Shown here piece after piece: positions 6,647 to 62,922 of a stretch of 64,000 nt of DNA. Both the position numbers and the translations under genes were made by a program. The notes beneath the pieces are model-generated. The model did no database searches and was not told where the DNA came from. It saw nothing but the letters and a program-made list of their open reading frames with translations. This DNA is from Isosphaeraceae bacterium (GTDB taxonomy: Bacteria; Planctomycetota; Planctomycetia; Isosphaerales; Isosphaeraceae): assembly GCA_046350035.1 (NCBI GenBank), contig JAXMBD010000014.1, positions 53,077 to 117,076 of the forward strand, given 5' to 3'. Positions within the stretch are counted from its first letter, which is position 1. The number at the start of each line of letters is the position of its first letter.

Positions 6647-9600
6647 TCAGTTCGCGAAGCTCGCGGCGAGCCGACCCGTGGGGATCGCCAGGAGTGTCAC
6701 CCGTGCCTTGGACCCCTTGCCGATCCGGGCCAGGGCATCGCCCCCAGGCAGGCGGTCGCGGTTGCCGTCGATCGCACGGCCGGAAGCGTCCATCAGCGCC
6801 TTGGGCAAGGTCCCGGAGATGCGAAGTTGCAGGATCCTGGTCAGGGCCAGCGGCCGGGCCAGGGTCAGTTTCACCAGGTTGGTGCCCGCCGAATATTGGG
6901 CCGATTTCAGCTTCACAACGGGGGCGGTCTTGCTGTCGAACGAGCCGCGGCGATCGGCCGTGGTGAGCTTGTAGTTGGCCAACGTCTGGGCCGATGCCTG
7001 GTTGAGGGCCCCGGTGAACGTCACGGTGAGCGTCGTCAAGGCCTTCGAGCGTGAGAGCGTCGGCTTGACCGTCGCGACCTGGACCGCGGGCACCAGGATG
7101 GATAGGGTGCCGCGGGCCGATCCCTGGTAATTCGGGTCGTCGATGGTGGCGGTCACATCGTAGTTGCCGGCGGCGGTCGGCCTCGCGACCGACCGGCCGC
7201 CCTCGAAGTAGGAGAGGATCACAGACAGGCCAGCGGGGTTTGTTGAGGCGGTCACCGCCTGGCCCTGGCCGTTGAACGGCACGCTCAGGTTGGACAGGGT
7301 CACCGACGCTTCGGCCTTCCTCGCGGCCACCGTACGACCGGGCGCTTCGGTCGCCAGGTGGTTGGCATCGCCGGCCTGGGTCGCGGTCAGAACGGCCGCG
7401 CCGGTACCGGTCGTCATGGTCACGAGGAACCCGCCCGTCGCATCGGGGACCACGGTGCAGCCCGTGCCGGTGAGCGCGACCGGCAGGCCCGAATCGCTGC
7501 TGGCGGTCACCCGGAAGGTCGAGCCGTAGGTCGCCGAGGCCGGCACGCCCACCAGGGCGATGGACTGCGACGCCGGGGCGATCACCAGGCCGGCCGAGCC
7601 ATCGACGGCCGGATCGAAGTTGGCGTTACCGGCGTAGGCGAAGGCTACCGAGTAGGTCCCGGCCGCCAGGCCGTGGAGGTCGATCGTGGCGGCGAACGAG
7701 CCGTCTTCCTGCACGGCCGCCTGCGCCGAGGCGTTGCCGATCGAGATCGAGACGACCTGGGCCGCCGGTACCGCCGTGGGGGCGATCAACCTGCCGGAGA
7801 CCACCGCCCCGCCCGCCTGGTTGTAGGTCGCGATCACCGGGGCCGAAATGCCAATGAACGTGGGGCGGGCCTTGACGACCCGGATCGAAGTGGTGGCCGC
7901 GGCGGTGGTGAAGCCGATCGGGTCGTCGGGCGTGAAGGCGACGTTCAGGACCTGCCCCGAGCCCGCCGGCAGCACCGTGCCGGCCGGCGGGCTGTAGGCG
8001 AACGTGCCGGGAGCCGAGGCGGTCGCGTCGAGTTGCAGGGCCGAAAGCGGCGTGCCGTACGCGATTTCCGCGGGGGTCGCCCAGGTGATCCGTGGCGTCA
8101 CCCGTCCGATCGCCAGGATCCCGGTGGCCGACTGCGCCCCGAGGCTGGCCGTGCCGGCGTAATCGGCCCGGATCGTGAACGATCCGATCGGCGTGCCGCC
8201 GGGGATCCGATAGGATACGCTCGCAACGCCGCCCATCACGGCCGCGGACTGCGGTTGGCCGACGACGGCCGTGCCGTTGAGGATCGTGAAGATCAACGAG
8301 CCCTCGCCCACCGTGCCGGCCGGGCTCGTCACGCGGGCGGAAAGCGCCACGTCCTGGTCGGCCCCGTTCGAAGGGGCCCCCACGCTGGGCACGGCCACGA
8401 GGGTTGACGCCTGCCGGACGATCAGCGACCCCGCGGCGTCGGCCTCCGCCGCTCGGAAGTTGGCCGACGGCTGATAGGCGGCCCGGATCGTGTAAGAGCC
8501 GGCCGACAGTCCCGGCGGCAGTGTATAAACGGCCATGGCCGAGCCGGCAGCCACCGCACCCGTCGTCGGGTTGCCCAGCGGGTTCCCGCCGGCATCGAGA
8601 ACCGTGAAGACGACAAGCCCGCCGTCCACCACGCCGGCGGGGCTGGAGACTGCGGCGGCCAGGCTTACCGACTGCGAGGGCACCGCGTAGGTGGTCGATT
8701 GCGCCGAGGCCGCCACGGTCGCATCGGCCGGGCTGATCGTCAGCGTCCGGTCGGCGGGGTTGAACGGCTGGAAGTTGCCGTTACCGGCGTAGGAGGCGCG
8801 GAGCCTGTACGAGCCGGCCGGAAGCCCCGCGGGCAGCCGGTAAGCTCCGACGGCCTGCCCTGACACGACCGTCGCCGTGGCCGACGTCCCGACCACGGAG
8901 GCGCCGTCGAACAACGTGAAGGTGACGACCCCACCGTCGACCGAGCCGGCCTGGCTCACCAGGCCCAGTGTGACACGGACCGACTGGTCGGATGCTCCGT
9001 TGTAGACGATCGGGTCGGCCGAAAAACCGCCCGCCAGCGAGGTTGAGGCGGCCGACACCGTCAAGACCCCGCGGGTATCGGCCGGCGAGGCGAGGAAGCC
9101 GCCGCTCCCCCCGTAGGTGACCTCAATCTGGTAAGCCCCCCCCGCCAGGCCCGGCGGCAGGGGCATTGAGGCGGAGGCACGCCCCTGGGCCACCGACCCG
9201 AAGACCGGCCCGGCGACAATGGTCGCGCCGCTCACCAGCCGGAACGCGACCGAGCCGCCATCGACGACCCCGGCCGTGCTGGTGACGGTGGCCGACACAC
9301 CCACGGCCTGCGAGGAAGCGCTGAAAACGGCCGAGGCCGAGGCGGCGGCGGATGCTGTGGACGCGGCGGCGATCGTCAGGGTCTGGCCGGAATCGACCGA
9401 GGTCAAGAAATTGGTGTTCCCGTTGTAAGTGGCCTGGATCGAGTAAGCCCCGGGGGCCAGGCCGGCCGGCAGGGGGTACGACACGGTCGCGACGCCCGAC
9501 GCCGAGACCGACGCCGATACCGAAGTCGTTCCGGGAACCGCCAAGCCCCCCTGCAGCAGCACGAACGCCACTTCACCGACGTTGACGATGGCCGTGCTGG

Positions 9601-9956
9601 TCACGGTGGCCGTCAAGTTCACCGACTGCGACGCGACCACGAAAGCAGTCGAGGCCGGCGCGGCGGCGACGGCCGTCGCCGCCGCGTTGACGACCAGCAC
9701 CTGCGTCGAGTTGATCGACGTGATGAAGTTCGTCGACCCGCCGTAGGTCGCCTGGATCGTGTAGCTGCCCGCACCCAGGCCCGCCGGCAGCGGGTACGAA
9801 ACCGTCGCGACGCCCGACGCCGACACGGCGGCCGACACCGTGGTCGTCCCCGCCACCGGCACGCCGCCTTGCAGGAGCGCGAACGACACCGAGCCGACAC
9901 CCACCACGGCGGCCGTGCTGGTCACGCTCGCCGTCAGGGTCACCGAGGCGGCGCCC
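6647..9956 (-). CDS. giant Ig-like-repeat surface protein, C-terminal fragment (frameshifted)
   Basis: ORF 6647..10216. Only residues from '...ASGAASVTLTASVTSTAAVVG' onward look like protein; the first ~85 aa are R/P/C-rich junk. Repeated ~105-aa modules end in 'Y.LP.GL..GSY.I.A.Y.G..NF'. A C-terminal Ig-like module is present ('VTFTGALNQASAQTLANYKL'). Confidence 0.8.
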
Positions 9957-12900
9957 GAAGCCGGCCGAGGCCGGCGCGGCGGCGACGGCCGTCGCCGCCG
10001 CGTTGACGACCAGCACCTGCGTCGAGTTGATCGACGTGATGAAGTTCGTCGACCCGCCGTAGGTCGCCTGGATCGTGTAGCTGCCCGCACCCAGGCCCGC
10101 CGGCAGCGGGTACGAAACCGTCGCGACGCCCGACGCCGACACGGCGGCCGACACCGTGGTCGTCCCCGCCACCGGCACGCCGCCTTGCAGGAGGGCGAAC
10201 GATACCGAGCCGACACCCACCACGGCGGCCGTGCTGGCCACGGTGGCCGTCAAGTTCACCGACTGCGACGCGACCACGAAAGAAGTCGAGACCGGCGCGG
10301 CGGCGACGGCCGTCGCCGCCGCGTTGACGACCAGCACCTGCGTCGAGTTGATCGACGTGATGAAGTTCGTCGACCCGCCGTAGGTCGCCTGGATCGTGTA
10401 GCTGCCCGCACCCAGGCCCGCCGGCAGCGGGTACGAAACCGTCGCGACGCCCGACGCCGACACGGCGGCCGACACCGTGGTCGTCCCCGCCACCGGCACG
10501 CCGCCTTGCAGGAGCGCGAACGACACCGAGCCGACACCCACCACGGCGGCCGTGCTGGTCACGCTCGCCGTCAGGGTCACCGAGGCGGCAGCACCGCTAT
10601 AGATCAGCGGCGCGGGTGTCACGGCCGCTGTGGTGGTGGAAGCCTGGAGGATCGTCAACGACTGAGCAAAGACCGAGGTCACCGAAGTGTAGTTGGTCGA
10701 GCCGCCGTAGGCGACCTGGACCGAGTACGAACCGGCCGCCAGGCCGCCCGGCAGGGCGAAGACGCCGCCGGCCCGGCCGGCATTGACCGCGACCCCCGGC
10801 CAGGTGGCCACCGTTGCGGAGCCACTCAGGATGGCGAAGGTGACGGTCCCCTCGTTGACGGTGTCGCTGCCGGCGCCGATCGTCGCGTTTAGGGTCACGG
10901 ACGACCCGTTGGCGTTGAACGTGGCCGAGGCGTTGCCGCCGACGCTGGGCGTCACCGCGCTAGTGTTCACCGTGAGCGTGGCGTTGGTACCGACGAAGGA
11001 CTGGAAGTTCCCGGCCGAATTGTAGGCGGCCTGAACGGCGTAGGTGCCCGAGGCCAGGCCCGGCGGCAGGGTCGCGGCGGCCTGGGCCGCGTTGGCCGAG
11101 ACGGTGGGGCTGGGGACGCCCGCCACCACGCGGTTGTCCGCCCGGAGGAGTCGGAATGTGACCGTGCCCACGTTGATCGACGACGCGTTGGGGCTGGTCA
11201 CCTGGGCAAACAGGTTAACCGACTGCGATCCGGCGGCAAAGTAGGTGACCGGGGGAGGGGCCTGGACGGTCAGGCCACCGATCGGCGCCTGGGCGACCGG
11301 CATCGTCTTGGTGTCCGACGTGCTCGCGTAGCTGTCGGGGGCCGCGTAAATGGCCTTGATCGTGTAATTGCCGGCGACCGTGCCGGCGGGCAGGATGTAA
11401 GACGTACTGGCCTGGTTGTTGACGACCGGGGCCGACGGGCTGGCGATCGGGGTCCCGTAGAGCGAGATCGCGAACGTGACGGTGCCGTAGCTCAGGCTCG
11501 GGTTGCCCGAACTGGTGACGTTGGCCGTTAGGCTGATCGTCTGGGAGATGTCGGCCTGGTAAACCAGCGACGGCGGGCTGGGGATCGTCGTGGAGGTGGA
11601 GGCCGTTCCGATCGTGAGGAACTTGCCGTTGTCGGTCGCCGACAGGTAATTCTGCGTGCCGATGTAGGTGGCCACGATCGTATACTGGCCCGCCGGGGTG
11701 CCGCCGGGCAGGATGTAGTTGTTCGCCGTCGCGGCGCCATTCTGGACGAGAACGGTGACCGCCTGGCCGATCTGCGTGGTGCCGAAATAGACGGCGAACT
11801 GGACGCTCCCCTCGTTAATGGCCACGCCCACCGATGTGGCGACGCTGGCGGAGAGGCTGATCGTCTGATCGGTCGTCTGGAAGGCCACCCCGGTCTTCGA
11901 ATTGGCCGTGATCCGCGCCGCGTTGGTGGCGACGAACGGCTGATAAACGATCGTCGGCCGTGTCGCGTCGGTCACGTGGTCGAGGATCTTGGCCGCGATC
12001 GCCGTCGGAGAGGTGGTGCCCCAGTAGTTGAGCGACAGATCAAGATTGGCGTTCGGATCGCCCACGGCGACGACGCCCCGGTTGCCAATACTCGTGAAGT
12101 CATTCTGATGGATGTTCGTCGTCGCACTACCGGTCAGGGTTAGCACGGTTGAGAGCAACGAATTCAGGATCGTGGCATTGGCGAGAGAACCAACCGTGAC
12201 CGAAGTAATGGAAACAGAGCAGTTGCTTAGAATCAGACGTCCGGGATTCGAGACTCCGCCGGCGACGTTGAGCTGGCTGGGGTAGTTGCCGTTGGTGGTG
12301 GAGGTGAAGGTCGCCCCGGTCGCCGTCAGCGTCCCGCCGGAGCCCACCGACACCGTCGACGACGACGGGTACGGCGTGTACTGCACGGTGTTGCTACCTG
12401 GGAAGCTCGCCGAGCCTCCGTTCAGATTCAGGCTAGCGCTTGCCCCGATTGACAGCGTGGCGCCCGTGCCGAGGTTCAAAGCTGCCTGAGAATTGACGGT
12501 AAGGGTCTGATTGTCCGCAATCTTCAGGTAACCCGTCGCGCCGACGCTGAGAGTCGTGCTTGTGTTGACAACGAACGGACCGCCGAGGGTGCTGCTAGAG
12601 TTCAGCGTCAGCGACCCGCCGAGAAGCTTGATTGTAGTATTGCTGTTGCTTTGTATCCCCAGGACTGTGTCGTTGCCCGAATTGTGTGTGACCACGATCG
12701 CCTGGCTCTGGGTGAATGAGGCCACATCGCTTACGCCGGGGACCTGCTTGGGGCTCCAGTTATTGGAATCCCCCCAGTCGCCGCCTGCCGAGTTGTTCCA
12801 GGTGATCACGGCTAACAGGGCACGGTCCTCCAGGCCCTCCGTCTCGAATAGCGGCCGGCGGCGGTGCCGGCCGTTGCTATGAGGCTTCGGGCCGGGCGAC

Positions 12901-12986
12901 TTGACGTTCGGCGTGGCCGGGCGGAGCGGGAGACGGAGGGTCCGGTGGAGTCGGCTCACGGTGGGGCTCCTCGGTACATCGCCCAC
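9573..12986 (-). CDS. giant Ig-like-repeat surface protein, N-terminal fragment (frameshifted)
   Basis: N-terminal 'RRRPLFETEGLEDRALLAVITWNN', a beta-helix-like T/S/N/G-rich region, then Ig-like modules. The last ~125 aa ('GFGRRLGDPDGERDQHGRRGG...') are out-of-frame read-through after an extra base in the C-run at 9954-9956. Confidence 0.8.
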   Translation of the reverse strand: MGDVPRSPTVSRLHRTLRLPLRPATPNVKSPGPKPHSNGRHRRRPLFETEGLEDRALLAVITWNNSAGGDWGDSNNWSPKQVPGVSDVASFTQSQAIVVTHNSGNDTVLGIQSNSNTTIKLLGGSLTLNSSSTLGGPFVVNTSTTLSVGATGYLKIADNQTLTVNSQAALNLGTGATLSIGASASLNLNGGSASFPGSNTVQYTPYPSSSTVSVGSGGTLTATGATFTSTTNGNYPSQLNVAGGVSNPGRLILSNCSVSITSVTVGSLANATILNSLLSTVLTLTGSATTNIHQNDFTSIGNRGVVAVGDPNANLDLSLNYWGTTSPTAIAAKILDHVTDATRPTIVYQPFVATNAARITANSKTGVAFQTTDQTISLSASVATSVGVAINEGSVQFAVYFGTTQIGQAVTVLVQNGAATANNYILPGGTPAGQYTIVATYIGTQNYLSATDNGKFLTIGTASTSTTIPSPPSLVYQADISQTISLTANVTSSGNPSLSYGTVTFAISLYGTPIASPSAPVVNNQASTSYILPAGTVAGNYTIKAIYAAPDSYASTSDTKTMPVAQAPIGGLTVQAPPPVTYFAAGSQSVNLFAQVTSPNASSINVGTVTFRLLRADNRVVAGVPSPTVSANAAQAAATLPPGLASGTYAVQAAYNSAGNFQSFVGTNATLTVNTSAVTPSVGGNASATFNANGSSVTLNATIGAGSDTVNEGTVTFAILSGSATVATWPGVAVNAGRAGGVFALPGGLAAGSYSVQVAYGGSTNYTSVTSVFAQSLTILQASTTTAAVTPAPLIYSGAAASVTLTASVTSTAAVVGVGSVSFALLQGGVPVAGTTTVSAAVSASGVATVSYPLPAGLGAGSYTIQATYGGSTNFITSINSTQVLVVNAAATAVAAAPVSTSFVVASQSVNLTATVASTAAVVGVGSVSFALLQGGVPVAGTTTVSAAVSASGVATVSYPLPAGLGAGSYTIQATYGGSTNFITSINSTQVLVVNAAATAVAAAPASAGFGRRLGDPDGERDQHGRRGGCRLGVVRAPARRRAGGGDDHGVGRRVGVGRRDGFVPAAGGPGCGQLHDPGDLRRVDELHHVDQLDAGAGRQRGGDGRRRRAGLDCFRGRVAVGELDGHRDQHGHRQRR
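9591..10590 (-). repeat. three near-identical tandem coding units (periods 316 and 321 bp)
   Basis: Identical shadow ORFs start at 9900, 10216 and 10537 ('MSAR[CY]RS[RP]SCKAACRWRG...'). The protein repeats 'TAAVVGVGSVSFALLQGGVPVAGTTTVSAAVSASGVATVSYPLPAGLGAGSYTIQATYGGSTNFITSINSTQVLVVNAAATAVAAAP' three times. Confidence 0.9.
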
Positions 12987-13537
12987 GGGTAGGCGGGGAC
13001 GTTTCGTCCCGTAGGTGATGCCTTCATGGATGCAGTCTGCGCAATCCGGATCGGTTCACAAATGGAATACCGGGGGAATGAACACGGTTGTGTGGTTTTT
13101 TTCCCGAATTCGATCCGAAGACGATCGACCGAGCGGAAAAAACGGCTTTCCGACCTTTGACGTCCCGCCCTGGCAGCTTGCGCCCACGGCATGTGTCCCC
13201 GACGGAACGCCTGGCGCTGTTTGCCTTTCGGAAATCGAGCCCGGGTCACCACTCCTGCCGATTTGTTCGCACCGAGTCGGTGGCAGCCGGCGTGATTGTG
13301 GTCCGTTTGGATGGGACGGCTTCGTCCGGTCTGGCCTCCCGTCGGGCTTTACGAGACCCGGCGCCAGGCCGGTCGTTCCATCGACGGGGTGTGGCCGGCT
13401 TTGCGGGCGAAACTCTCGCTCTCGTCCGGCACGGAACCGCTTCCTGGCTGGTCGGTAGGCGCAGGCCTTCACCCCCCGGGTGGCCGGTCGAGTGGGTGTC
13501 GGGGACGGCCGATTCCCGCCGATACGGGGGTCGTTCC

Positions 13538-17046: not shown

Positions 17047-17562
17047 ATGCAAAACCGCCTGATGGAGCTGGTCGAACAGACCAGCCTGAAGCAAACGGTG
17101 CCGCACTTCGAGATCGGCGACACCGTCGACGTCCACGTGCGGATCCTCGAAGGTGAGAAAGAGCGGATCCAGATCTTCAACGGCGTGGTGATCGCCCGGT
17201 CGGGCACCAAGACCCGAGAGATGTTCGTGGTCCGTCGGATCGTCCAGGGCGAGGGCGTCGAGCGGAAGTTCCCGGTCCATTCGCCCAGGATCGCCGACAT
17301 CGTCGTCAAGCGGTCGGGCAAGGTCCGCCGGGCGAAGCTGTACTATCTCCGAGGCCTCTCGGGCAAGGCCGTCCGGCTCAAGGAGCGGTTCGTCGGCGGA
17401 AAGGCGACGGTGGCCGAGGCCGCGGCCGCCCGCGTCGAGAAACGCGCCGCCCGCAAGGCCCGCAGCGAGGCCCGAGCCGCCGCCCGGGCCGAGGCCAAGG
17501 CCAACCCCAAGCCCAAGGGCAAGAAGGGCGACGCCCCGGCCGAGGCCGAATCGGCCTCGTAA
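17047..17562 (+). CDS. rplS: 50S ribosomal protein L19 with K/A-rich C-terminal extension
   Basis: '[30 protein letters not shown]', '[21 protein letters not shown]', '[10 protein letters not shown]'. ATG at 17047. Confidence 0.92.
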
Positions 17563-17674
17563 CGCCCCGAAGCGAGACGCCCCGGGCGCGCGGCGGCCTC
17601 AACCCGCTGCGCGCCGGTCGAACACCCGCGGATACTGAACCGAACCGACGCGATCCGTAGCGAGGTCCCCCACG

Positions 17675-18064
17675 ATGGCCGCCGATAAAGGCAAGTCCGA
17701 GAAGCCCAAGACGCAGCACAAGCCGCCCGCCGATCCCAAGGCCGAAGCCAAGGCCGAGGCCCGCGCCAAGGACAAGGCGAAGAAGGCCAAGGCCGAGGCG
17801 GAAGCCAAGGCCGAAGCCAAGGCCGCCGAGCCGGCCAAGCCCGAACCCGCAGCCCCTCGGCCCCCGGCCGACCCCCGCCTCAAGGTCATGAAGAAGTTCG
17901 AGGGCCGGTTCCTGCCCAAGGGCCCCCTGCGCGACCGCTACAAGGCGATCCGCGTCCGGTGGGATTCCGAACAGGACAACGGGGGTGTCACGGTCGAAGA
18001 ATTGAAAGGCCTGCTCAACGACTGGCGAGCCTCCCGGGCCAAGCCAACCAAGGCCAAGGCCTGA
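17675..18064 (+). CDS. hypothetical Lys/Ala/Glu-rich protein
   Basis: 129-aa ORF. The low-complexity 'KAEAKAEARAKDKAKKAKAEAEAKAEAKA' N-half is followed by a normal-looking C-half 'LKVMKKFEGRFLPKGPLRDRYKAIRVRWDSEQDNGGVTVEELKGLL'. Confidence 0.45.
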   Translation: MAADKGKSEKPKTQHKPPADPKAEAKAEARAKDKAKKAKAEAEAKAEAKAAEPAKPEPAAPRPPADPRLKVMKKFEGRFLPKGPLRDRYKAIRVRWDSEQDNGGVTVEELKGLLNDWRASRAKPTKAKA

Positions 18065-18088
18065 GCGACGGGCGATCCTGCAAAGACG

Positions 18089-19855
18089 CTACGAGATCGG
18101 ACGGCCCCGCCGGGCGTTCTGGGCCAGCTTGGCCCGACCTCGCCCGGCCGACGCCCTCCAGAGCAGCTTCCAGGTGAAATCATTGCGGAAGAGGCCTGGG
18201 TCGTAAAGCCGGAGGAACCGGAGTTCATCGCCTCGGAGCTTCCCGGGCGCCTCGGCCAGGCTGATCCGCAGTCGCGTCAGGTTCTGGACCCGCCGGGCCA
18301 TCGCCATCGCCCGGTGGAGCCGGGCACCCACCAGGTCGATTAGGTAGAGCCGGCCCGCCCCCCCTTCCCGGCCGTCCGACCCCTCGATCAGGATGTTGGC
18401 CGATTTCAGGTCCCGGTGCGATAGCGACCGGCCGTGCAAGTCCGCGATCAACTGGGCCAGCCGGTAGAGTAGCGGAGTGATGAGGCGGCGGCGTTCCTGG
18501 GAGCTCGCCCGCTCGACGTGCGTCAGCAGGTAATCCTGCAACGTCACCGAAGGCTCGACCTTCTTCGTGACCAAATAGGTCTCGGAGTGGAGCCAACGCA
18601 AGGGCCTGGGCAGCCAGTCCGGCCCCCGACGAACCAGATAGGCCAGGTTCGCTGGGGTCGATACGGCGCGGCTGGCCAGGTGCTGGCCGGCGACCCAGGA
18701 AGCCCAACCCCTCGAAGGCCGGAAGAGGCTCAGGAGCGGGTCGAACCAGCGTCGGACGTTGAACCGCTTATAAATCAATGGCCCTTTGGACAGGCCGTCC
18801 AGGGTCACCTCGGCGACGAAGGTCGTCCTCGAATCCTTGAGGATCCGGGCCCCGGGCGCCTCCAAGGGGCGATCCGGATCCTCCAACAGGGCGAGGATCG
18901 GGTCGACATCGCCCCGGGCGCGGACGCCGATCGCCCAGACCATCGGCGAACTTCGGATCTGGAAATACTTGTTGTTGCCGCGATTCCGGCGGCCCCAGCG
19001 CCTCCAGAGCCGATCGGCCCATGCCCGGGTTTTGCGATCGATCCGGGCGATGAGCAGTCGAGGCCAGGGGTGGGGGTCGGATCGTGCCCGAAGGTAGGCG
19101 AGGAACGCCCGATAGCGATCGGTTCGGCTGGCGCGGAAGCCGAAGTAGTGGTCGAGCAGGGCCAGATTATCCATCGATTCCGACCAGCCTAATCCCGGCC
19201 GATAACGGACAGCGTCCAGGTCGATCAGGTAAAGTCTCGGTCGGTCGTCGGCAGCAAATCGGACCAGAAAGTTGCCCGGGTGGAGATCCAGGTGAACGAA
19301 GCCGGCCTCGTGGAGCTGGGCCGTGAGCTTCCCGAGCTCGATCGCCAGGGCGCGACGAAGCCGGCCCCTTGAGGGCTCCTCGCGATCCGGCAGGTCCTGT
19401 TCGTAGACCTCCTGGAGCGACCTGGAACCGTCGAGGCCGAGGGTGATCAGGTAGTTCTCGAGCAGGAAGCCCCACCGCCGGCGCTCGCCGATGGCCAGGG
19501 GCCGGATCGTGGGGATGCCCAGCCGGGCCAGTTCCAGCGCGTGCAGGCACTCGTTGCGCCCCTTGCCCCGGCGGAACCACTGGCGGAGCTTCGTCCGCAG
19601 GTCCGGGACGAGGAAATGCTTGATGTAAACCGTGCCGCGATCCAGGTCGACCCGATAGACCACCCGGAAGGGGCTGCTCTTGACGACGTGGAGCCTGCCC
19701 TCGGACTTCCAGCGGTCGATCCGGAAGCCCTGGTCGTCGGCAAAGGCGTCCCTCCAGCCCGGGTCGACCTTCCACGACTTGGGGCCCGCCCGGAAGGCGG
19801 GCCAGTCGCGGAACGGCGGGTTGGTTGCCGGATCGAACTCCGTATGTCCCCGCAC
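18089..19855 (-). CDS. tandem Kdo/WaaP-family (lipopolysaccharide-kinase-like) protein kinase-fold protein
   Basis: Two kinase-like cores, 'LHEAGFVHLDLHPGNFLV...LYLIDLDAV' and 'LHGRSLSHRDLKSANILI...LYLIDLVGA'. GTG at 19855 is preceded by GGAGGGGG, 17 nt after the upstream kinase stop. The upstream part of ORF 18089..20320 is R/G/P junk overlapping the previous gene. Confidence 0.75.
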   Translation of the reverse strand: MRGHTEFDPATNPPFRDWPAFRAGPKSWKVDPGWRDAFADDQGFRIDRWKSEGRLHVVKSSPFRVVYRVDLDRGTVYIKHFLVPDLRTKLRQWFRRGKGRNECLHALELARLGIPTIRPLAIGERRRWGFLLENYLITLGLDGSRSLQEVYEQDLPDREEPSRGRLRRALAIELGKLTAQLHEAGFVHLDLHPGNFLVRFAADDRPRLYLIDLDAVRYRPGLGWSESMDNLALLDHYFGFRASRTDRYRAFLAYLRARSDPHPWPRLLIARIDRKTRAWADRLWRRWGRRNRGNNKYFQIRSSPMVWAIGVRARGDVDPILALLEDPDRPLEAPGARILKDSRTTFVAEVTLDGLSKGPLIYKRFNVRRWFDPLLSLFRPSRGWASWVAGQHLASRAVSTPANLAYLVRRGPDWLPRPLRWLHSETYLVTKKVEPSVTLQDYLLTHVERASSQERRRLITPLLYRLAQLIADLHGRSLSHRDLKSANILIEGSDGREGGAGRLYLIDLVGARLHRAMAMARRVQNLTRLRISLAEAPGKLRGDELRFLRLYDPGLFRNDFTWKLLWRASAGRGRAKLAQNARRGRPIS

Positions 19856-19872
19856 GCGAATCGTCCCCCTCC

Positions 19873-21462
19873 TCAAGCCCTCGGGAAGGCCTCGCCCAGG
19901 GCGCCCATGAGCTGGTCGAAATCGACCGGCTTGGTCAAGTGCCGGGCGAAGCCGGCGTCCCTGGCGAGCTGCCGGTCCCTGTCCTGCCCGTAGCCGGTCA
20001 GGGCGATGAGCGTCGGGGGAGGGCCGTCGGAGTCCCGGCCGATCAACCGCGCCACCTGATAGCCATCCATGCCTGGGAGTCCGATGTCGAGCAGGACGAC
20101 TTTCGGTCGGGCCGACCGGGCCAGGCCCACCGCCGACGGACCATCGAACGCGATGGCGACCTCGTAGCCGCTCAATTCCAGCAACCGTGCCATGCCACGT
20201 GCGGTGTCCACGTTGTCGTCCACCACCAGGATTTTTCTGGGGCCCTGGGCGCGGTCGGCGCCAGGCCGTTCGGGCGCGGCCGTCGCCTCGGTCGTAGGCG
20301 GGGCCACCGCGGGCAACCATACGGTGAACTTGCTGCCGAGGCCGAGGCCTTCGCTCTCGGCCGCGACGCGGCCGCCGTGCATTTCCACCAGCCGCTTCAC
20401 CAGCGTCAGGCCGATACCCAGCCCCCCCTCCGAGCGGGCGAGCGACCGGTCACCCTGGACGAACAGGCCGAAGAGGTTGGCCACCTGCTCCGGGGGGATG
20501 CCGATCCCGTGATCCTCCACTTCGAACCGCAACTGGCCGTCCGCGACGCGTGTCGAAAGCCGGATCCGCCCCCCGTCGTCGGAATACTTCGCGGCGTTCG
20601 TGAGCAGGTTCACCGCCACCTGCTCCAGGCGAGTGGGATCGACGTCGAGGTGGGCCCCGGAGTGGCCGTAATCGAGCTCGAGGCGATGCCGGCGTTCCTG
20701 CACGAGCGGCCCGATCGAGGCCACCGCCCGCTCAAACACCGGGGTCGGGTCGATGACCTGGCGGCGGACCTGGATCTTGCCGTGCATGATCCGCGAGACG
20801 TCGAGCAGGTCGTCGATCAGGCGGCCGAAGGTCTTCGTCTGATTCTCGATGACCTGCCTGGCCCACTCCTGGTTCTCTCGCAGGGGGCTCCGTTTCCATA
20901 CCTCGATGGCGCCCGACACGGCCGAGAGCGGGTTCCGCAACTCGTGGGCGAGCATGGCAAGGAATTCGTCCTTGAGCCGGTCGGCCTCCTGGAGTGCCCG
21001 GGCATATCGGCGGCTCTCCTCGAGCAGGCGGGCGTTCTCGCAGAGGGCCTGCTTCAACTCCTCGCGATGGCGGGCCAGTTCGAAGAAGACCTGGGCCTTG
21101 CTGCGGAGGATGTCGGGCTCGATCGGCTTGCCCAGGAAATCGACGGCGCCGGCCTCGTAGCCCCGGAACCGACGCTTCTGGTCGGCATTGCCGGCGGTCA
21201 GGAAGATGATCGGCACGCGGCGAGTCCGCTCGGTGCCGCGCATCAGCTCGGCCAGCTCGAAGCCGTTCATCTCCGGCATCTGCACGTCGATCAGGGACAG
21301 GGCGACTTCATGCTCCAGGAGCAGTTCCAGAGCTTCGGGTCCGGACCTCGCCCTGAGGAGGGACAGGCCGTCTCTGCGGAGTAGCGCCTCCAGCGACAGG
21401 AGGTTCTCCTCGAGGTCGTCAACGAGCAGGAAGTGGATCGGTTCGGGCGGCTTCGTGGTCAT
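19873..21462 (-). CDS. hybrid histidine kinase, REC-HisKA-HATPase-REC
   Basis: 'HFLLVDDLEENLLSL...DVQMPEMNG', H-box 'FLAMLAHELRNPL', 'GGLGIGLTLVKRLVEMHGG', second REC 'KILVVDDNVDTARGM...DIGLPGMDG'. Confidence 0.9.
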   Translation of the reverse strand: MTTKPPEPIHFLLVDDLEENLLSLEALLRRDGLSLLRARSGPEALELLLEHEVALSLIDVQMPEMNGFELAELMRGTERTRRVPIIFLTAGNADQKRRFRGYEAGAVDFLGKPIEPDILRSKAQVFFELARHREELKQALCENARLLEESRRYARALQEADRLKDEFLAMLAHELRNPLSAVSGAIEVWKRSPLRENQEWARQVIENQTKTFGRLIDDLLDVSRIMHGKIQVRRQVIDPTPVFERAVASIGPLVQERRHRLELDYGHSGAHLDVDPTRLEQVAVNLLTNAAKYSDDGGRIRLSTRVADGQLRFEVEDHGIGIPPEQVANLFGLFVQGDRSLARSEGGLGIGLTLVKRLVEMHGGRVAAESEGLGLGSKFTVWLPAVAPPTTEATAAPERPGADRAQGPRKILVVDDNVDTARGMARLLELSGYEVAIAFDGPSAVGLARSARPKVVLLDIGLPGMDGYQVARLIGRDSDGPPPTLIALTGYGQDRDRQLARDAGFARHLTKPVDFDQLMGALGEAFPRA

Positions 21463-22037
21463 GACTCTGTCACGATAGCAAGAAGGTAATCGGCAATCTC
21501 CCCGAGTTCCAACGACCGAGCCCCGGGGCAGGCGTCGAGGGCGGCCGTTGGCATGGCCGGCGACAAGGCCTTGTCGGGTCGCTGAACCAGAGCGGTACCC
21601 CCGCGATCGACGATGGCCTTCAGCCCGCGCGCCCCGTCGCTGTTAGCCCCGGTGAGGACGATCCCGACGAGCCCCACCCCGTAAGCCTCGGCGGCCGTCT
21701 CGAGAAGGACGTCGATCGATGGCCGGGAAAACAGGACCGGCTCGTCGGCGGACAGGGAGAGGCGGCGATCGGGCTCGACGAGGAGGTGGTAATCGGGCGG
21801 TGCCAGGTACACGGTGGCCGGCTCGATCGGCTCCTTATCCTGGGCCTCCCGGACCGACACACGGCACTTCCTCCGCAGGAGATCGGCCAGGAAACTCTCC
21901 TTGTCGGCCGGGATGTGGACCACCACGAAAACCGGCAGGGGATAGTCGGCAGGCAGGCTGGGGAGGATCGCCGACAGGGCTTCGAACGCCCCGGCCGACG
22001 CGCCGATCGCGACCGCCTCCGTGGTGGAGAGGGTCAT
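21459..22037 (-). CDS. cheB: CheB-type protein-glutamate methylesterase, catalytic domain only
   Basis: 'AIGASAGAFEAL', 'VFVVVHIP', 'VLTGANSDGARG'. 192 aa, with no N-terminal REC domain. ATGA overlaps at both ends. Confidence 0.88.
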   Translation of the reverse strand: MTLSTTEAVAIGASAGAFEALSAILPSLPADYPLPVFVVVHIPADKESFLADLLRRKCRVSVREAQDKEPIEPATVYLAPPDYHLLVEPDRRLSLSADEPVLFSRPSIDVLLETAAEAYGVGLVGIVLTGANSDGARGLKAIVDRGGTALVQRPDKALSPAMPTAALDACPGARSLELGEIADYLLAIVTES

Positions 22038-22861
22038 CGGTCCCCCCGCCTCTGATAGATCCGGTGCTCCGGCGAGAACTCGGCGAAATTCGCGGAATGC
22101 GCCGAGAAGCGGAGCGACTCCTTGGCGCCCAGGCCCAGGAAACCCTTACGCGACAACGAGTCCCGGAACAGGCCGATGGCCCGATCCTGGAGTTCCCGGT
22201 CGAAGTAGATCAGGACATTCCGGCAGGAGATGAACTGGACCTCGGCGAAGACCTGGTCGGTGACGAGGCTGTGGTCGGAGAACACCACGCGGGATCGGAG
22301 GCTCCGGTCGAAAACGGCCGAGCCGTAGGCAGCGGTGTAGTAGTCGGAGAGGGACGACCGGCCTCCCGACTTCCGGTGGTTCTCGGTGAACAGGGCCAGT
22401 CGCCCTATGTCGTAGACGCCGGCCTCGGCCTTCACCAGGGCTTCGGGGCTGATATCGGTCCCGTACAGGATCGTACGCTCCTCGAGGCCCTCCTCGCGGA
22501 GCAGGATCGCCCACGAATAGACTTCCTCGCCGGCGCCACAACCGGCGACCCAGATTTTCAAGGAAGGGTAAGTCTTTAGGTGCGGCACCACTTCCTGGCG
22601 GATTGCCCGGAAATAGCCCGGGTCGCGGAAGAGTTCGCTAACCTGCACCGTCATGTAGGACAGCAGCACGGGGAAGGCCGTGGGGTCGTGTAGGGCCCGA
22701 TCCTGGACCTGCGAGAACGAGGCGCAGCCGAGTCGCTCTCGGGCCTGCAAGAGCCGCCGTCGGAGCGAGGCGACCGAGTAGCCCCTGAAGTCATAGTGGA
22801 ACTTCCGGTAGATCGCCTCCAGCAGCAGCTTGAACTCGATCTCCTCGGCGCGGTTCACCAC
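22034..22861 (-). CDS. cheR: CheR-type protein-glutamate O-methyltransferase
   Basis: 'FKLLLEAIYRKFHYDFRGYS', 'ELFRDPGYF', SAM motif 'KIWVAGCGAGEEVYS', 'FISCRNVLIYF'. GTG at 22861 follows GGAGG by 5 nt. Confidence 0.88.
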   Translation of the reverse strand: MVNRAEEIEFKLLLEAIYRKFHYDFRGYSVASLRRRLLQARERLGCASFSQVQDRALHDPTAFPVLLSYMTVQVSELFRDPGYFRAIRQEVVPHLKTYPSLKIWVAGCGAGEEVYSWAILLREEGLEERTILYGTDISPEALVKAEAGVYDIGRLALFTENHRKSGGRSSLSDYYTAAYGSAVFDRSLRSRVVFSDHSLVTDQVFAEVQFISCRNVLIYFDRELQDRAIGLFRDSLSRKGFLGLGAKESLRFSAHSANFAEFSPEHRIYQRRGDR

Positions 22862-22890
22862 GGGATCCTCCGGGATCGCTCCACCTTTCC

Positions 22891-25800
22891 TCACCTCGGC
22901 ATCCAGACGCGGACGAGCGAGAGAAGCTTCTCGACGTCCAGGGGCTTGGCCATATAGTCGTTGGCGCCGGCGTCGAGGCATTGCTCCTGGTCATCCCGCA
23001 TCGCCTTCGCGGTGAGCATCAGGATCGGCAGCTTCTTCCACGCGGGGCGGCTGCGGATGGCTCGGGTGGCCGCAAGGCCGTCCATCTCGGGCATCATGAC
23101 GTCCATCAGCACCAGATCGATCCGCTTGGCGGGGTCATCCCCGGCTTGTTCCAGGGCCTCGATCGCTTCCTTACCATTGCGGGCGATCCGGACGGATGCC
23201 CCGCGGGGCTCCAGGAGGCTCGTCAGTGCGAACACGTTCCGCACGTCGTCCTCGACGACGAGGATCCGCTTGCCTTCGAGCGCCGCATCCCGGCTCCGGG
23301 CAACCTCGAGCATCTTCTGATGCTCGGGTGGCAACTCCGAGACGACCTGATGGAGGAAGAGCGTCACCTCGTCAAGCAGGCGCTCGGGCGACTTGGCGCC
23401 CTTGATGATGATCGATCGGGAATGGCGGCGGAGTCGCTGCTCCTCTTCGGCGGACAGCTCCCGGCCGGTGTACACGATGGCCGGCGGGAAGGAATAGGCG
23501 TCCTCTCGGCTGAGCGTCTCCAGGAGCGTGTAGCCGGATGCGTCGGGCAGCGACAGGTCGAGCACCATGCAGTCGAATGTCTCGGAGCTAAGCCGCTCCA
23601 GGCACTCGGCGGCCGTACCCGCCCCGATGGTCTCGACAGCGAGCGAACCGAGCAGGATCCGCAGGCTCTCGAGCTGGAGGGGATCATCTTCGACGACCAG
23701 TATCCGGCGCATCCTCCGGGCCCATCGCTTCTCCAAACCGCCGATGGCCCGGGCCAGATCGTCGCGTTTCACCGGCTTGAGCAGGTAACCGACGGCGCCC
23801 AGCGACAGGGCCATCCCGGCGTGGTCGCTGGCCGAGACGACGTGGACGGGGATATGCCGTGTCCGGGCGTCCTGCTTGAGTCGATCGAGGACCGACAGGC
23901 CCGATTCGTCGGGCAGTCCGATGTCGAGCACGATGGCGCTGGGGAGATGGCGGATCGCCATCCCCAGCCCCTCTTGCGCGGTCGAGGCGACCAGGCACTG
24001 CAGATGTTGTTCGCGCGCCATGTCGTAGAGGATCCGTGCGAACTCCGGATCGTCCTCCACGACGAGGATTGCATGGGCGTCCCCGCGGAGTTTATCGCGG
24101 TCATCCTCGAAGAATCTCGGCCGGGTCGTCGCGGGGAGGGGCGGCGTCGGCGAGGGGGGCGGCTCGGCGGCCTGGGCCGGTGCGGCCATCTTGGCTTCGT
24201 CACGGGCTCGCACGAGGACCGGGTCGTATGCCTCCGGGATAGTGAGCGTGAAGATGCTGCCGCGGCCCGGTTCGCTTTCCAATCCGATCGAGCCGCCCAG
24301 CAACCTCGCCAGCTCGCGCGAGATCGACAGGCCGAGCCCGGTGCCCCCGTATTTCCGGCTCGTCGTCCCGTCGGCCTGGTGGAATGCCTCGAAGATGGCC
24401 TCCTGCTGATCGACGGCAATCCCGATCCCGCTATCCTGCACCGCGAACGCGACCCTACCGTCGTCGGCGCGTCGGACCTCGGTGACTACCCCCCCGCGTT
24501 CGGTGAACTTGATCGCGTTCGAGAGCAAATTCTTGAGGATCTGTTCGAGCCGCTGGCGATCGGTCTCGATCCGCTCGGGGCAACCGGGGGCGATCCCGGT
24601 CGAGAACGCAAGCCCTTTCTGGCTTGCGACCTGATCAAACGTCCGCGACAAGTCCTGAAGGAAGTCGACGATCCGCACCGGCTCCGCGCGGACCTCCATC
24701 CGGCCGGCCTCGATCTTCGACAGGTCGAGGATGTCGTTGATCAGGTTCAGCAGGTCGTTTCCCGACGACTGGATCGCCCTCGCGAACCTGACCTGCTCAT
24801 CCGTCAGGTTCCCCTGCGGATTGTCCGCGAGGAGCTTGGCCAGGATCAGCGACGAGTTGAGCGGCGTCCGCAACTCGTGCGACATGTTGGCCAGGAAATC
24901 GCTCTTGTACCGGCTGGCCTGCTCGAGTTCGCGGGCCTTGAGTTCCAGCGAGGCTTGCGAACGGCCGAGGTCGTCCCGCTGCCTGGCGAGGAGGTTCGCG
25001 TGTTCCTCCAGCTGGAAATTGCTCTGCTCCAATTCGACCTGTTGAAGCTCCAGCCTGGACTGCGACTCCTTCAGAATACGCCCCTGTTCCTCGAGTTCCT
25101 CGTTCGAGACCCGCAGTTCTTCCCCTTGAGCCTGGAGTTCTTCGGCCTGCCGTTGCGTCTCCTCCAGCAGTCCCTGGAGTGCAACCCGATTCTTGGCGGC
25201 CTTCACGGCCCGGGCGATGAAGTCCGAGGTCGAAGCTAGCAACCGTTCGGTCAGGTCGGCGCCCTTCTTGAGGTGGCCCAACTCAAGGATTCCCATCACC
25301 TCCCCATCAACCGACAGGGGGGCAACCACGAGATGGCCTGGCGCGGCGCGTCCGAGCCCCGAGCCGATCGTCAGGTAATCGGCCGGGGGGTCGGACAGTA
25401 CGAACGTGCGGAGATCCTTCGCCGCCTGCCAGAGCAGGCCGTCGCCATCCCGGATGCGCGTGGGGACGGTCCCGTTGGAAGGAACTCCATAGGTGGCCGC
25501 TCTCTCAAACCCGCTGCCCGCCTCGACGAAGAAGGCCCCCGCATGCGCATCGAGGTATTCGGCGAGGAACTTCAGGACGTTGTCGCCGACCTGCCCCGGT
25601 GACTGGTCGCCGGCCAGGGCGGTACTCAGCCCCACGGCCCCCGTTTGGAGCCACTCGCGTTGCCGCTGGGACAAGGCCGAACGCCTCGCGAAGTATCCGT
25701 TGACCCCGGCCAGGGTCACGCCGAGCAGGGTGGTCAGGGCGGCGCTCCCGACCGCAACCCGGAAAGCCGTCGACATTTCCGCCAGGCTGTCGGCCCGCCG

Positions 25801-26328
25801 CCGCAATTCCAAATCCTCAATCTCGCGGACGCGGAGCCGAATGGCGTCCATCGCCTCCTTACCGCGATCGGTCAAGACCAGGGACCGAGCAGCCTCGAAG
25901 CCTTCTGCCCGCCGGACCCCGATGGTATCCGCCAGTTCCGCGAGCTTGACGTCCACAAACTCCCTCAGCTGGAGCACACGCTCGCTGGCGATCGGCGAAT
26001 CCTGCACGAGCGTCGCTAACTCGTCGAGGCGGGAATCGATGCGGGCCAGGGAAAGATGATAAGTTCCGAGATAGCGGTCCTCGCCAGTGATGAGGAACCC
26101 CCGCTGGCCGGTCTCGGCGTCTTTCAGCGTCGACAGGAACTCATCGACCTTGGCGAGCGTGTCGTGTGTACGGGTGGCCTGCCCCACGTCGTAGAGGATC
26201 TTGCGCAAATTCACGTACGAAATCAGGCCGCTTACGAGGAAGAACACCAGCAGGGCGACGAACCCCAAAGTGAGCGAGGCAGGCAGGTCGGCCGCCGGGG
26301 ATCCGCGACCCGCGTTCGAATCCGGCAT
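22891..26328 (-). CDS. CHASE3-TM-GAF-coiled coil-HisKA-HATPase-3xREC hybrid sensor kinase
   Basis: CHASE3-like 'LKDAETGQRGFLITGEDRYLGTY', TM 'AALTTLLGVTLAGVNGYF', H-box '[13 protein letters not shown]', '[14 protein letters not shown]'. Three REC domains ('ILVVEDDPEFARIL', 'ILVVEDDPLQLESL', 'ILVVEDDVRNVFAL'). Confidence 0.9.
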   Translation of the reverse strand: MPDSNAGRGSPAADLPASLTLGFVALLVFFLVSGLISYVNLRKILYDVGQATRTHDTLAKVDEFLSTLKDAETGQRGFLITGEDRYLGTYHLSLARIDSRLDELATLVQDSPIASERVLQLREFVDVKLAELADTIGVRRAEGFEAARSLVLTDRGKEAMDAIRLRVREIEDLELRRRADSLAEMSTAFRVAVGSAALTTLLGVTLAGVNGYFARRSALSQRQREWLQTGAVGLSTALAGDQSPGQVGDNVLKFLAEYLDAHAGAFFVEAGSGFERAATYGVPSNGTVPTRIRDGDGLLWQAAKDLRTFVLSDPPADYLTIGSGLGRAAPGHLVVAPLSVDGEVMGILELGHLKKGADLTERLLASTSDFIARAVKAAKNRVALQGLLEETQRQAEELQAQGEELRVSNEELEEQGRILKESQSRLELQQVELEQSNFQLEEHANLLARQRDDLGRSQASLELKARELEQASRYKSDFLANMSHELRTPLNSSLILAKLLADNPQGNLTDEQVRFARAIQSSGNDLLNLINDILDLSKIEAGRMEVRAEPVRIVDFLQDLSRTFDQVASQKGLAFSTGIAPGCPERIETDRQRLEQILKNLLSNAIKFTERGGVVTEVRRADDGRVAFAVQDSGIGIAVDQQEAIFEAFHQADGTTSRKYGGTGLGLSISRELARLLGGSIGLESEPGRGSIFTLTIPEAYDPVLVRARDEAKMAAPAQAAEPPPSPTPPLPATTRPRFFEDDRDKLRGDAHAILVVEDDPEFARILYDMAREQHLQCLVASTAQEGLGMAIRHLPSAIVLDIGLPDESGLSVLDRLKQDARTRHIPVHVVSASDHAGMALSLGAVGYLLKPVKRDDLARAIGGLEKRWARRMRRILVVEDDPLQLESLRILLGSLAVETIGAGTAAECLERLSSETFDCMVLDLSLPDASGYTLLETLSREDAYSFPPAIVYTGRELSAEEEQRLRRHSRSIIIKGAKSPERLLDEVTLFLHQVVSELPPEHQKMLEVARSRDAALEGKRILVVEDDVRNVFALTSLLEPRGASVRIARNGKEAIEALEQAGDDPAKRIDLVLMDVMMPEMDGLAATRAIRSRPAWKKLPILMLTAKAMRDDQEQCLDAGANDYMAKPLDVEKLLSLVRVWMPR

Positions 26329-26715
26329 GGAGGTTGCCCGAGGAAAGAATATCGACGACGCCCGGCAGGACCGACCAGCTCCCCGGTCTCAACAGCCCAT
26401 GTCGTCGGGTGGGATGGGTTCAGGAATAGGCCATCCGACCGACCCGAAGGTAACGACCCTATCCCCTCGCCACAAGGAAAAGTCGCGACCGACCTAGCCC
26501 GCGAATCCGAAGCATCGGCCACCGCAAGTTGGGTGGGTCGATGACCCGACGAATTGACTAGCACATCTCGCGCCACGAGCTGACAATCTCGACGATCACG
26601 CGGGAAGCTTGTACCCTAAAAACTGTCGAACCAAGCTTTTACTGAGCCTTGCAGCAAGATCTGATCCCTTAGATCGGCAGACTAAGCATCCGGCCGCGGT
26701 TTTCCCGGACTTTCC

Positions 26716-26910
26716 GCCCCGGAGGAGCGGCGGTGGATAGCCCGGGGCGCCAGCCCCGGGAAACGGCCAACCCCACCTAAAGGGCCCCGGCACGGCGCCG
26801 GAAATCCCTGGAAACCAGGGATTTCCGACGCCGTGCCGGGGCCTGTTCGTTGGGGTTGGCCGTTTCCCGGGGCTGGCGCCCCGGGCTATTCACGGTCGCC
26901 CCTCCGGGGC
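26716..26910. repeat. 195-bp near-perfect palindrome (two 96-nt arms, 3-nt loop)
   Basis: Arms 26716-26811 and 26815-26910, paired base by base by hand: 85 Watson-Crick pairs, 3 G:T wobbles and 8 true mismatches out of 96. Mirror ORFs on both strands give 'MPGP[FV]RWGWPFPGAGAPGY'. Confidence 0.9.
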
Positions 26911-27049
26911 TTTATAACCGAGAATCATGCAACAACCGTGTCCGCCCGCTTAGACTCCTCGAAGAACGAGTGTACGAGTCGTGGCTTCTGGCGAAGGCGA
27001 CCGAGAGCCGGGTGGAATTCCGGATGCAACTGATCCAGGTCCAGTCAGA

Positions 27050-62389: not shown

Positions 62390-62572
62390 CCCACGTCCAT
62401 CGCACCGCCGGCCCAAAGTCCCGTGACATCGCGACTCCCATGCGAAGGACTCAACGAGGCTCGAGAGTGGGCCAAACCGGTTTCTTGGCGGTTTAGTCGC
62501 TACGGACATTCAGGCTCGCCCTTTCTCGGCCGACGCTCGATAATTGAGCCACACCCGAGGGAGGATGGCAGG

Positions 62573-62922
62573 GTGGGACGCCGACAAGCCTTGACCGACG
62601 AGCAGTGGGTCAGGATCCAGGGCCTCCTCCCCGGCAAGCCGGGCGACCCGGGGCGGATGGCCGCCGACAACCGCCTCTGCGTCGACGCGGTCCTCTACCT
62701 CCTGAAGACCGGCAACCCCTGGGAGGACCTGCCGGCCCGCTTCGGCAAGCCGAACTCGGCGTGGAAGCGGGTCGATCGCTGGTGCCGCGCGGCTGTGTGT
62801 TGGAGCGGATCGCGGCGCCCCTGAACGACCCGGACCTGGAGGAGGTCCAACTGCACTCTTGCAGCATCAAGGCCCATTCGGTCGCCTCGACGGGCCGGCG
62901 CCAGGCCGCCGAAAAAAACTAG
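62573..62922 (+). pseudogene. IS5-family transposase N-terminal fragment (frameshifted, truncated)
   Basis: GTG at 62573 after GGGAGG. 'LTDEQWVRIQGLLPGKPGDPGRMAADNRLCVDAVLYLLKTGNPWEDLPARFGKPNSAWKRVDRWCRA', shift in the 'gtgtgt' tract near 62795, then 'LERIAAPLNDPDLEEVQLHSCSIKAHSVASTG'. It ends where the next element begins. Confidence 0.6.

Follow-up and report, generated by a model that had tools for sequence, protein, structure and literature searches.

The window analysed here, a 64,000-nucleotide stretch of an Isosphaeraceae (Planctomycetota) metagenome-assembled genome (MAG; contig JAXMBD010000014.1), carries on its minus strand five packed open reading frames (ORFs) that encode, in order, a membrane hybrid histidine kinase (HK1), a CheR-type methyltransferase, a CheB-type methylesterase, a second hybrid kinase led by a receiver (HK2) and a tandem Kdo/WaaP-family kinase (K5). 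The first four genes probably represent a cassette of the RsbK/RsbM, CfcABCD and BmsA type, in which methylation of the HK1 S-helix by the CheR/CheB pair tunes the kinase. This reading is carried by the domain content of the encoded proteins, their intact catalytic residues, the conservation of the cassette and the extreme conservation of the S-helix. An initial annotation of this DNA had described all five genes as one phosphorelay operon ending in K5. An ORF check of the window recovered the five genes at the coordinates it gave, and a Pfam search agreed with the domain content it assigned to all five proteins. Its five-gene arrangement was only partly borne out by the neighbourhood survey, in which genes 1–4 are conserved across phyla whereas the fifth gene is kept only in close relatives.

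HK1 contains a highly conserved S-helix with heptad-spaced glutamate pairs

HK1 (1145 aa; 22891..26328, minus strand) is built from a first transmembrane (TM) helix, a periplasmic CHASE3 domain, TM2, a GAF domain, a 13-heptad S-helix, HisKA with His484, HATPase and three receivers. Pfam places CHASE3 at residues 50-181 (E = 2.9e-34), GAF (GAF_2) at 242-375, HisKA at 475-542 and HATPase at 590-699, followed by three Response_reg matches, and the hydrophobic segments at about residues 11-40 and 191-209 flank CHASE3. All three receivers keep the DD, D, T/S and K motifs. Orthologues of 1157-1159 aa with the same architecture are found in Singulisphaera, Fimbriiglobus and an Acidobacteriota MAG.

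Between the GAF domain and the H-box, the S-helix (residues 384-474; 24907..25179, minus strand) comprises 13 heptads without a break; position a is held by Leu and position d by polar residues, for the most part Gln or Ser, and the polar d positions suggest that the coiled coil is only marginally stable. Glu-Glu pairs occupy f/g of four consecutive heptads (E389/390, E396/397, E403/404 and E410/411, at a spacing of seven residues), and further pairs lie at E413/414 and E441/442. We propose the Glu-Glu cluster at 25087..25164 (minus strand) as the candidate CheR/CheB target sites, by analogy with RsbK/RsbM (PMC4574943). Each proposed column holds Glu in 35-39 of 39 orthologues, and the exposed Glu and Gln positions of the helix are nearly invariant in the same set. 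Indeed, the S-helix is the most conserved segment of the cassette, with a median identity of 73.8%; the corresponding values are 41% (sensor), 65% (kinase core), 67% (CheR), 60% (CheB) and 52% (HK2). Conservation this strong at exposed acidic and amide positions is consistent with their being recognised by partner enzymes. The coiled coil of HK1 is thus the likely substrate of CheR and CheB, and the suggestion that the first kinase is the best candidate substrate is strengthened by the heptad Glu-Glu array, the conservation of the S-helix and the RsbK/RsbM precedent.

Almost every d position of the 13 heptads holds Gln or Ser in place of a hydrophobic residue, and this pattern is conserved across phyla; a coiled coil with such a polar core is unusual and may be designed for switching. 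A homology search with the 116-aa S-helix returned only short fragments, the motif being widespread. Many of these fragments (P0121, P0124, P0126, P0129, P0131 and others) carry a precomputed match to PF28019.1, which may be a recently defined family covering the S-helix coiled coil.

CheR and CheB appear catalytically competent and lie outside any local chemotaxis locus

The CheR-type S-adenosylmethionine (SAM)-dependent protein-glutamate methyltransferase (275 aa from a GTG start; 22034..22861, minus strand; Pfam CheR_N and CheR) is encoded directly downstream of HK1. Its closest solved relative is Bacillus subtilis CheR (5FTW, E = 1.9e-24), against whose ACSTGEEPYT and CRNVFIYF motifs the AGCGAGEEVYS and CRNVLIYF motifs of the window protein are conserved, and its identity across cassette loci is 64-77%. 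The following gene encodes a CheB-type methylesterase that consists of the catalytic domain alone (192 aa; 21459..22037, minus strand; Pfam CheB_methylest, E = 1.4e-54). Its Ser14, His41 and Asp134 align with the Ser164, His190 and Asp286 catalytic triad of Salmonella CheB (1A2O) and are invariant in 26 family members. Judged by these conserved residues, both enzymes look competent. The receiver is absent from this CheB, as it is among the 120 homologues listed, and CheA-type phospho-control of the esterase is therefore impossible.

Pfam searches of 46 further ORFs across the window returned no MCPsignal, CheA or CheW match. In line with the initial annotation, the window thus holds no methyl-accepting chemotaxis protein (MCP), CheA or CheW, and no chemotaxis locus surrounds the CheR/CheB pair. 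Elsewhere in the family, cheA, cheB, cheR and cheW have been reported in Paludisphaera borealis, Singulisphaera acidiphila and strain SH-PL62, and only cheW in Isosphaera pallida; all four genomes contain few flagellar genes, and the described Isosphaeraceae have no motile cells (PMC5352709).

Genes 1–4 form a cassette found in several phyla and on plasmids

The receiver-less CheB family is very large, with 7,526 matches at E <= 1e-10 among 8,000 scored candidates. Through CheB, and by tblastn with the window proteins, we located 84 cassette loci, comprising four genomes or MAGs (Paludisphaera rhizosphaerae, Singulisphaera acidiphila, Fimbriiglobus ruber and an Acidobacteriota MAG) and 80 metagenome loci. 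Wherever the contig allows it to be seen, CheR lies directly upstream of CheB and an HK2-like receiver-led kinase directly downstream. An HK1 orthologue with the S-helix is present at a fixed distance in 36 of the 38 loci that have at least 4.6 kb upstream. The sequence comparisons therefore identify the four genes, genes 1–4, as the conserved unit.

HK2 (529 aa; 19873..21462, minus strand) is a cytoplasmic kinase with the Pfam order REC-HisKA-HATPase-REC. In the other loci, gene 4 always opens with a conserved receiver, and the kinase behind it differs, being HisKA-HATPase with or without REC, HWE_HK, or PAS-HisKA_3-HATPase-REC. The conserved element of gene 4 is its N-terminal receiver.

The hosts of the cassette include Isosphaeraceae, Gemmataceae and the Acidobacteriota MAG, together with plasmids of Rhizobium, Agrobacterium, Ensifer and Brucella, whose CheB proteins are 60-66% identical to the planctomycete protein. 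The one plasmid that was checked, Rhizobium oryzihabitans plasmid p1 (58908-73471), carries HK1, CheR, CheB and HK2, and the S-helix, kinase core, CheR and CheB encoded there match their planctomycete counterparts at 65-78% identity. Another 75 plasmid records, some of them conjugative, contain related CheB genes. The crossing of phyla at such high identity suggests horizontal spread, and genes 1–4 of the window probably belong to a widely distributed cassette that is likely to have spread horizontally. On the Rhizobium plasmid, a single-domain response regulator gene lies convergently just after gene 4. At the Paludisphaera rhizosphaerae locus (L009), a Peptidase_M24 gene precedes CheR, and a phage-type integrase and a run of small ORFs lie a few kilobases further upstream.

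K5 is a predicted envelope sugar kinase that is not conserved with the cassette

K5 (588 aa; 18089..19855, minus strand) matches Pfam Kdo (PF06293) in two stretches. The whole protein scores 100.1 bits, and its N- and C-terminal halves score 58.9 and 44.4 bits, so that each half alone exceeds the Pfam cutoff of 21.3 and the kinase-fold assignment made earlier is upheld; both motifs quoted for it in the initial annotation are found in the translation. Among 27 family members, the invariant residues include Lys79, the His188-x-Asp190...Asn195 loop and Asp212/Asp214 in the N-terminal half, and Lys363, the Arg481-Asp482...Asn487 loop, K484 and Asp507 in the C-terminal half. Neither core has thus lost its ATP-binding Lys, catalytic loop or metal-binding Asp, and the second has a protein-kinase-like HRDLKxxN loop. 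The closest solved relative is Pseudomonas aeruginosa WaaP (6DFL), and the score against the NCBIfam RfaP equivalog NF011703 is 93.2 bits, well below its cutoff of 170. The family, of about 590 aa and well conserved, is annotated as "lipopolysaccharide kinase InaA family", and no receiver or other phospho-acceptor domain was found in K5 by Pfam. From these features, K5 is most likely an envelope sugar kinase of the lipopolysaccharide (LPS)-core type.

Four short contigs (L004-L007) preserve all five genes in order; their proteins share 73-84% identity with those of the window, and their K5 copies 78-80%. In contrast, at the 39 other cassette loci where at least 4 kb of downstream sequence is available, no K5 homologue follows the cassette, and the genes that do follow are mutually unrelated (DUF6065, alpha/beta hydrolase, FG-GAP and HlyD). 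K5 homologues at 50-52% identity, in Paludisphaera borealis and three other Isosphaeraceae contigs, come after a GT4 glycosyltransferase; three of these four loci have a DUF1570 protein behind K5, and an MsbA-like ABC transporter is encoded upstream, on the other strand, in three. In another genome K5 is again followed by a DUF1570 protein but preceded by an uncharacterised gene, and contig L008 has an isolated K5 copy, at 63% identity, flanked by an M61 peptidase gene on one side and a cytochrome-containing gene on the other. A single-sequence search of the genome contigs with K5 returned one locus only. In the window, K5 follows HK2 and does not lie in an envelope-polysaccharide neighbourhood, and tblastn with the Paludisphaera GT4, DUF1570 and ABC proteins gave no match in the window or in L008, indicating that the GT4 setting did not move along with K5.

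As seen in L001, L003, L093 and the P0013 contig, the K5 family in Isosphaeraceae is usually found behind a GT4 glycosyltransferase, in most cases with a DUF1570 protein after it and the MsbA-like ABC transporter on the opposite strand, an arrangement that looks like a small envelope-glycan (LPS-core-like) module.

On the simplest reading, then, K5 is an independent envelope kinase juxtaposed to the cassette in one sub-lineage. K5 is probably co-transcribed with the cassette, because the 17 nucleotides (nt) between HK2 and K5 leave no room for signals. The neighbourhood counts led us to reject, as the leading explanation, a cassette-specific paralogue that serves as output. The proposal of a tandem Kdo-type kinase as the conserved terminal gene and output is not sustained by the downstream counts or by the homologues at 50-63% identity in other contexts, mostly after GT4. 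The initial annotation had itself named a gene order not conserved in relatives as evidence against its model, and for the fifth gene this is what is seen. Since K5 is not conserved with the cassette, the idea of an adapting phosphorelay with a non-transcriptional output likewise loses its support. The output of the relay is not encoded in the cluster.

Proposed mechanism and alternative explanations

We infer the following route from the features above. HK1 would detect one cue in the periplasm, by CHASE3, and another in the cytoplasm, by GAF, and the S-helix, as a long and marginally stable coiled coil, would carry the signal to His484. CheR would methylate the heptad-spaced Glu-Glu pairs with SAM, and the receiver-less, presumably constitutively active CheB would hydrolyse the esters, such that the methylation level sets or resets the on/off bias of the kinase, as on a chemoreceptor. 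If CheR and CheB prefer opposite states of the helix, as they do in chemoreceptors, the module could adapt without phospho-feedback to CheB. From His484, phosphoryl groups would reach the HK1 receivers and most probably also the receiver at the N-terminus of HK2, which would gate the second kinase; this last transfer is proposed because the receiver of gene 4 is strictly conserved. The final response regulator would be encoded elsewhere, and K5 would act as an independent envelope sugar kinase and not as the output of the phosphorelay.

Several findings weigh against this mechanism. A regular-expression search for the MCP methylation consensus, [ASTG][ASTG]xx[EQ][EQ]xx[ASTG][ASTG] or EExxA[ST], gave no match in HK1, nor in HK2 or K5, so that recognition of the helix, if the helix is the substrate, would differ from that in MCPs. 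The proposed sites show no Glu/Gln alternation, a sign of CheB deamidation, among the 39 orthologues. Two loci, L009 and L056, carry CheR, CheB and the receiver-led kinase with no HK1 orthologue within 10 kb upstream. No Hpt domain was found in the five-gene cluster, and transfer from receiver to receiver would therefore depend on a protein encoded outside it. A HAMP domain and a single receiver are described for RsbK, whereas HK1 has three receivers and no HAMP match in Pfam at E <= 0.01, with a gap of only about 30 residues between TM2 and GAF. The likeness to RsbK, CfcA and BmsA is drawn from published architecture and gene order. Finally, since a comparative study reports both cheA and cheW for three of its four Isosphaeraceae genomes (PMC5352709), an MCP substrate may be encoded elsewhere in the genome.

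This last point, the missing MCP consensus in HK1 and the restriction of our inspection to 64 kb of the genome all favour an alternative in which CheR and CheB serve chemoreceptors encoded elsewhere and their position between two kinases reflects co-regulation only. We regard this as unlikely: the pair is fixed in the same four-gene order at 84 loci in several phyla and on plasmids, this CheB lacks the receiver that couples CheB to CheA, and the described Isosphaeraceae are non-motile with few flagellar genes (PMC5352709). Moreover, the equivalent Pseudomonas pair has no role in chemotaxis (PMC4951495), and the precedent enzyme RsbM methylates the kinase itself (PMC4574943). It is very improbable that the two enzymes instead modify another cassette protein, such as HK2 or a receiver, or that CheB is mainly a deamidase outside any reversible methylation cycle. 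CheB enzymes are also glutaminases, and the two loci that retain CheR, CheB and the kinase in the absence of an upstream HK1 speak for such an alternative. However, HK2 has no heptad Glu-Glu array and gene 4 is variable behind its receiver, and almost every orthologue has Glu and not Gln at the proposed sites, which leaves a deamidase no encoded Gln to act on. RsbM, too, targets the S-helix (PMC4574943).

The model of the initial annotation, in which the five genes are one functional unit and K5 is the relay output through control at the protein level or deliberate co-expression, gains from the short HK2-K5 spacer (or a 4-nt overlap with an alternative start), from a consensus scan that found no terminator- or promoter-like site at the HK2-K5 junction, and from the order kept in the four contigs of relatives. 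Nevertheless, it appears quite unlikely, given that K5 is missing downstream of all 39 cassettes examined, where the fifth genes are heterogeneous, that its 50-63% identical homologues follow GT4 or stand alone, and that K5 has no phospho-acceptor domain; the window, rich in insertion sequences, fits rearrangement. There is a similarly slim chance that the cassette of this sub-lineage captured a tandem LPS-core-type kinase, placing envelope sugar phosphorylation under co-expression with, or control by, the two-kinase relay. If true, such a capture would be a link from signalling to the envelope that is new for systems of the RsbK/Cfc type. Taken together, the evidence leads us to prefer a four-gene cassette in which HK1 would be the substrate of CheR and CheB.

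Gene starts, coding evidence and surroundings

The third-position GC content (GC3) of all five frames is high (0.83-0.88), as in real genes of this genome, arguing that they are coding. The ATGA overlaps described earlier at 22034-22037 and 21459-21462 are present. The spacers of 29 and 17 nt hold with the starts chosen in the initial annotation but depend on those starts, and 4-nt overlaps are also possible: alternative in-frame starts, GTG at 22894 for CheR, which overlaps the HK1 stop, and TTG at 19876 for K5, give GTGA and TTGA overlaps in place of the spacers. The CheR orthologues are 275 aa long, which favours the original start of CheR. With the alternative starts, all four junctions, including 22891-22894 and 19873-19876, become 4-nt NTGA start/stop overlaps, a pattern that hints at translational coupling along the whole run. 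A consensus scan for promoters and terminators over 17500-27200 gave counts at or below the shuffled expectation and neither supports nor contradicts a single operon.

Remnants of mobile elements lie at 157-1422 (tyrosine integrase), 27050-27652 (DDE_3 fragment, directly upstream of HK1), 36523-37740 (DDE_5 transposase), 43657-44160 (DDE_Tnp_1 fragment) and 62390-62824 (DUF4096 fragment), and the region looks prone to rearrangement. A 99-aa ORF at 35289-35588, with the DDE_5 transposase at a distance of about 900 nt, aligns to the HlyIII family over its C-terminal third alone (profile positions 141-224) and may be a gene truncated by insertion. A second two-component locus, at 44251-50387, consists of a minus-strand gene for an NtrC-type sigma-54 activator and, transcribed away from it, one for a 1499-aa multi-GAF/PAS hybrid kinase, which carries a receiver and the only Hpt domain found in the window, the element that receiver-to-receiver transfer in the cassette would need. 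At 6647-13055, two very long minus-strand ORFs with many Big_3_5 and MG2 domains lie in different frames and share about 680 nt; a single giant gene for a surface protein, interrupted by a frameshift or an assembly error, may explain them. The window also carries a DUF1559/N_methyl gene typical of planctomycetes.

Comparison with known systems

In the sigma-B stress module RsbK-RsbM(-RsbY), a CHASE3/GAF/S-helix/HisKA-HATPase/receiver kinase is likewise encoded beside a CheR-type methyltransferase. The Bacillus cereus kinase RsbK comprises CHASE3, HAMP, GAF, an S-helix, a kinase core and a receiver; purified RsbM, a CheR homologue, labels it with 14C-SAM, and methylation represses RsbK signalling and keeps the pathway off (PMC4574943). 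The methylation maps to the S-helix, and 127 RsbK-like kinases in 10 phyla are cited in that report (PMC4574943). In RsbK, the off state is stabilised by methylation through the receiver domain. The genomic association of RsbK with CheR had been noted earlier (PMC12848376). Whereas RsbM is an orphan with no paired esterase, the window cassette includes CheB, and whereas RsbY (REC-PP2C) is encoded nearby in Bacillus, gene 4 here is a receiver-led second kinase and the cluster holds no output regulator.

Closer in gene order are the Pseudomonas clusters, cfcABCD, the bmsA cluster of P. alkylphenolica and 3082-3079 of P. brassicacearum, which match genes 1–4 of the window, a cassette from a different phylum. 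In the P. putida cluster cfcABCDE, CfcA is a CHASE3/GAF hybrid kinase, cfcB is a cheR, cfcC is a cheB and cfcD, for a receiver-containing hybrid kinase, follows; a role of the pair in chemotaxis was ruled out (PMC4951495), and the fifth gene, cfcE, is named with no description in the accounts of the cluster. CfcA acts on a separately encoded REC-GGDEF regulator, CfcR (PMC4951495, PMC6849547), and a hybrid kinase-CheR-CheB-hybrid kinase neighbourhood surrounds the bmsA orthologue in Pseudomonas (PMC8175716). These clusters thus share the absence of a chemotaxis role and an output regulator encoded elsewhere (PMC4951495, PMC6849547, PMC8175716), and the roles of CheR and CheB are not worked out in their published accounts. 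No REC-GGDEF protein was found among the scanned ORFs of the window. The initial annotation had known of no worked-out mechanism for CheR/CheB genes beside hybrid kinases; methylation of the RsbK S-helix by RsbM in vitro (PMC4574943) and the described cfcABCD (PMC4951495) and bmsA (PMC8175716) clusters contradict this. Taking the kinase as the substrate is a reasonable idea with an existing precedent, and the novelty claimed for it does not hold.

Canonical chemosensory adaptation employs the same CheR and CheB families and heptad-spaced Glu-Glu pairs on a long coiled coil adjoining the kinase-control region. It also has an MCP, CheA, CheW and a REC-CheB, whereas the window has no MCP, CheA or CheW, its CheB has no receiver and the helix departs from the MCP consensus; the canonical methyl-acceptor is the MCP, while here the kinase itself would be methylated. 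K5 resembles WaaP/RfaP, WaaY, KdkA and InaA in its PF06293 fold and in the conserved Lys, catalytic-loop and metal Asp motifs, and differs in having two fused kinase cores in about 590 aa, compared with about 260 aa for the LPS-core kinases. Collectively, these comparisons make the locus a planctomycete example of a cassette whose methylation enzymes, of the chemotaxis type, seem to have a histidine kinase and not a chemoreceptor as their target. The survey removes the claim of a tandem lipid/sugar-type kinase as the relay output, and it supplies targets for the CheB-containing version of such systems: a four-gene unit, a conserved Glu-Glu coiled coil, and a presence on plasmids and in several phyla.

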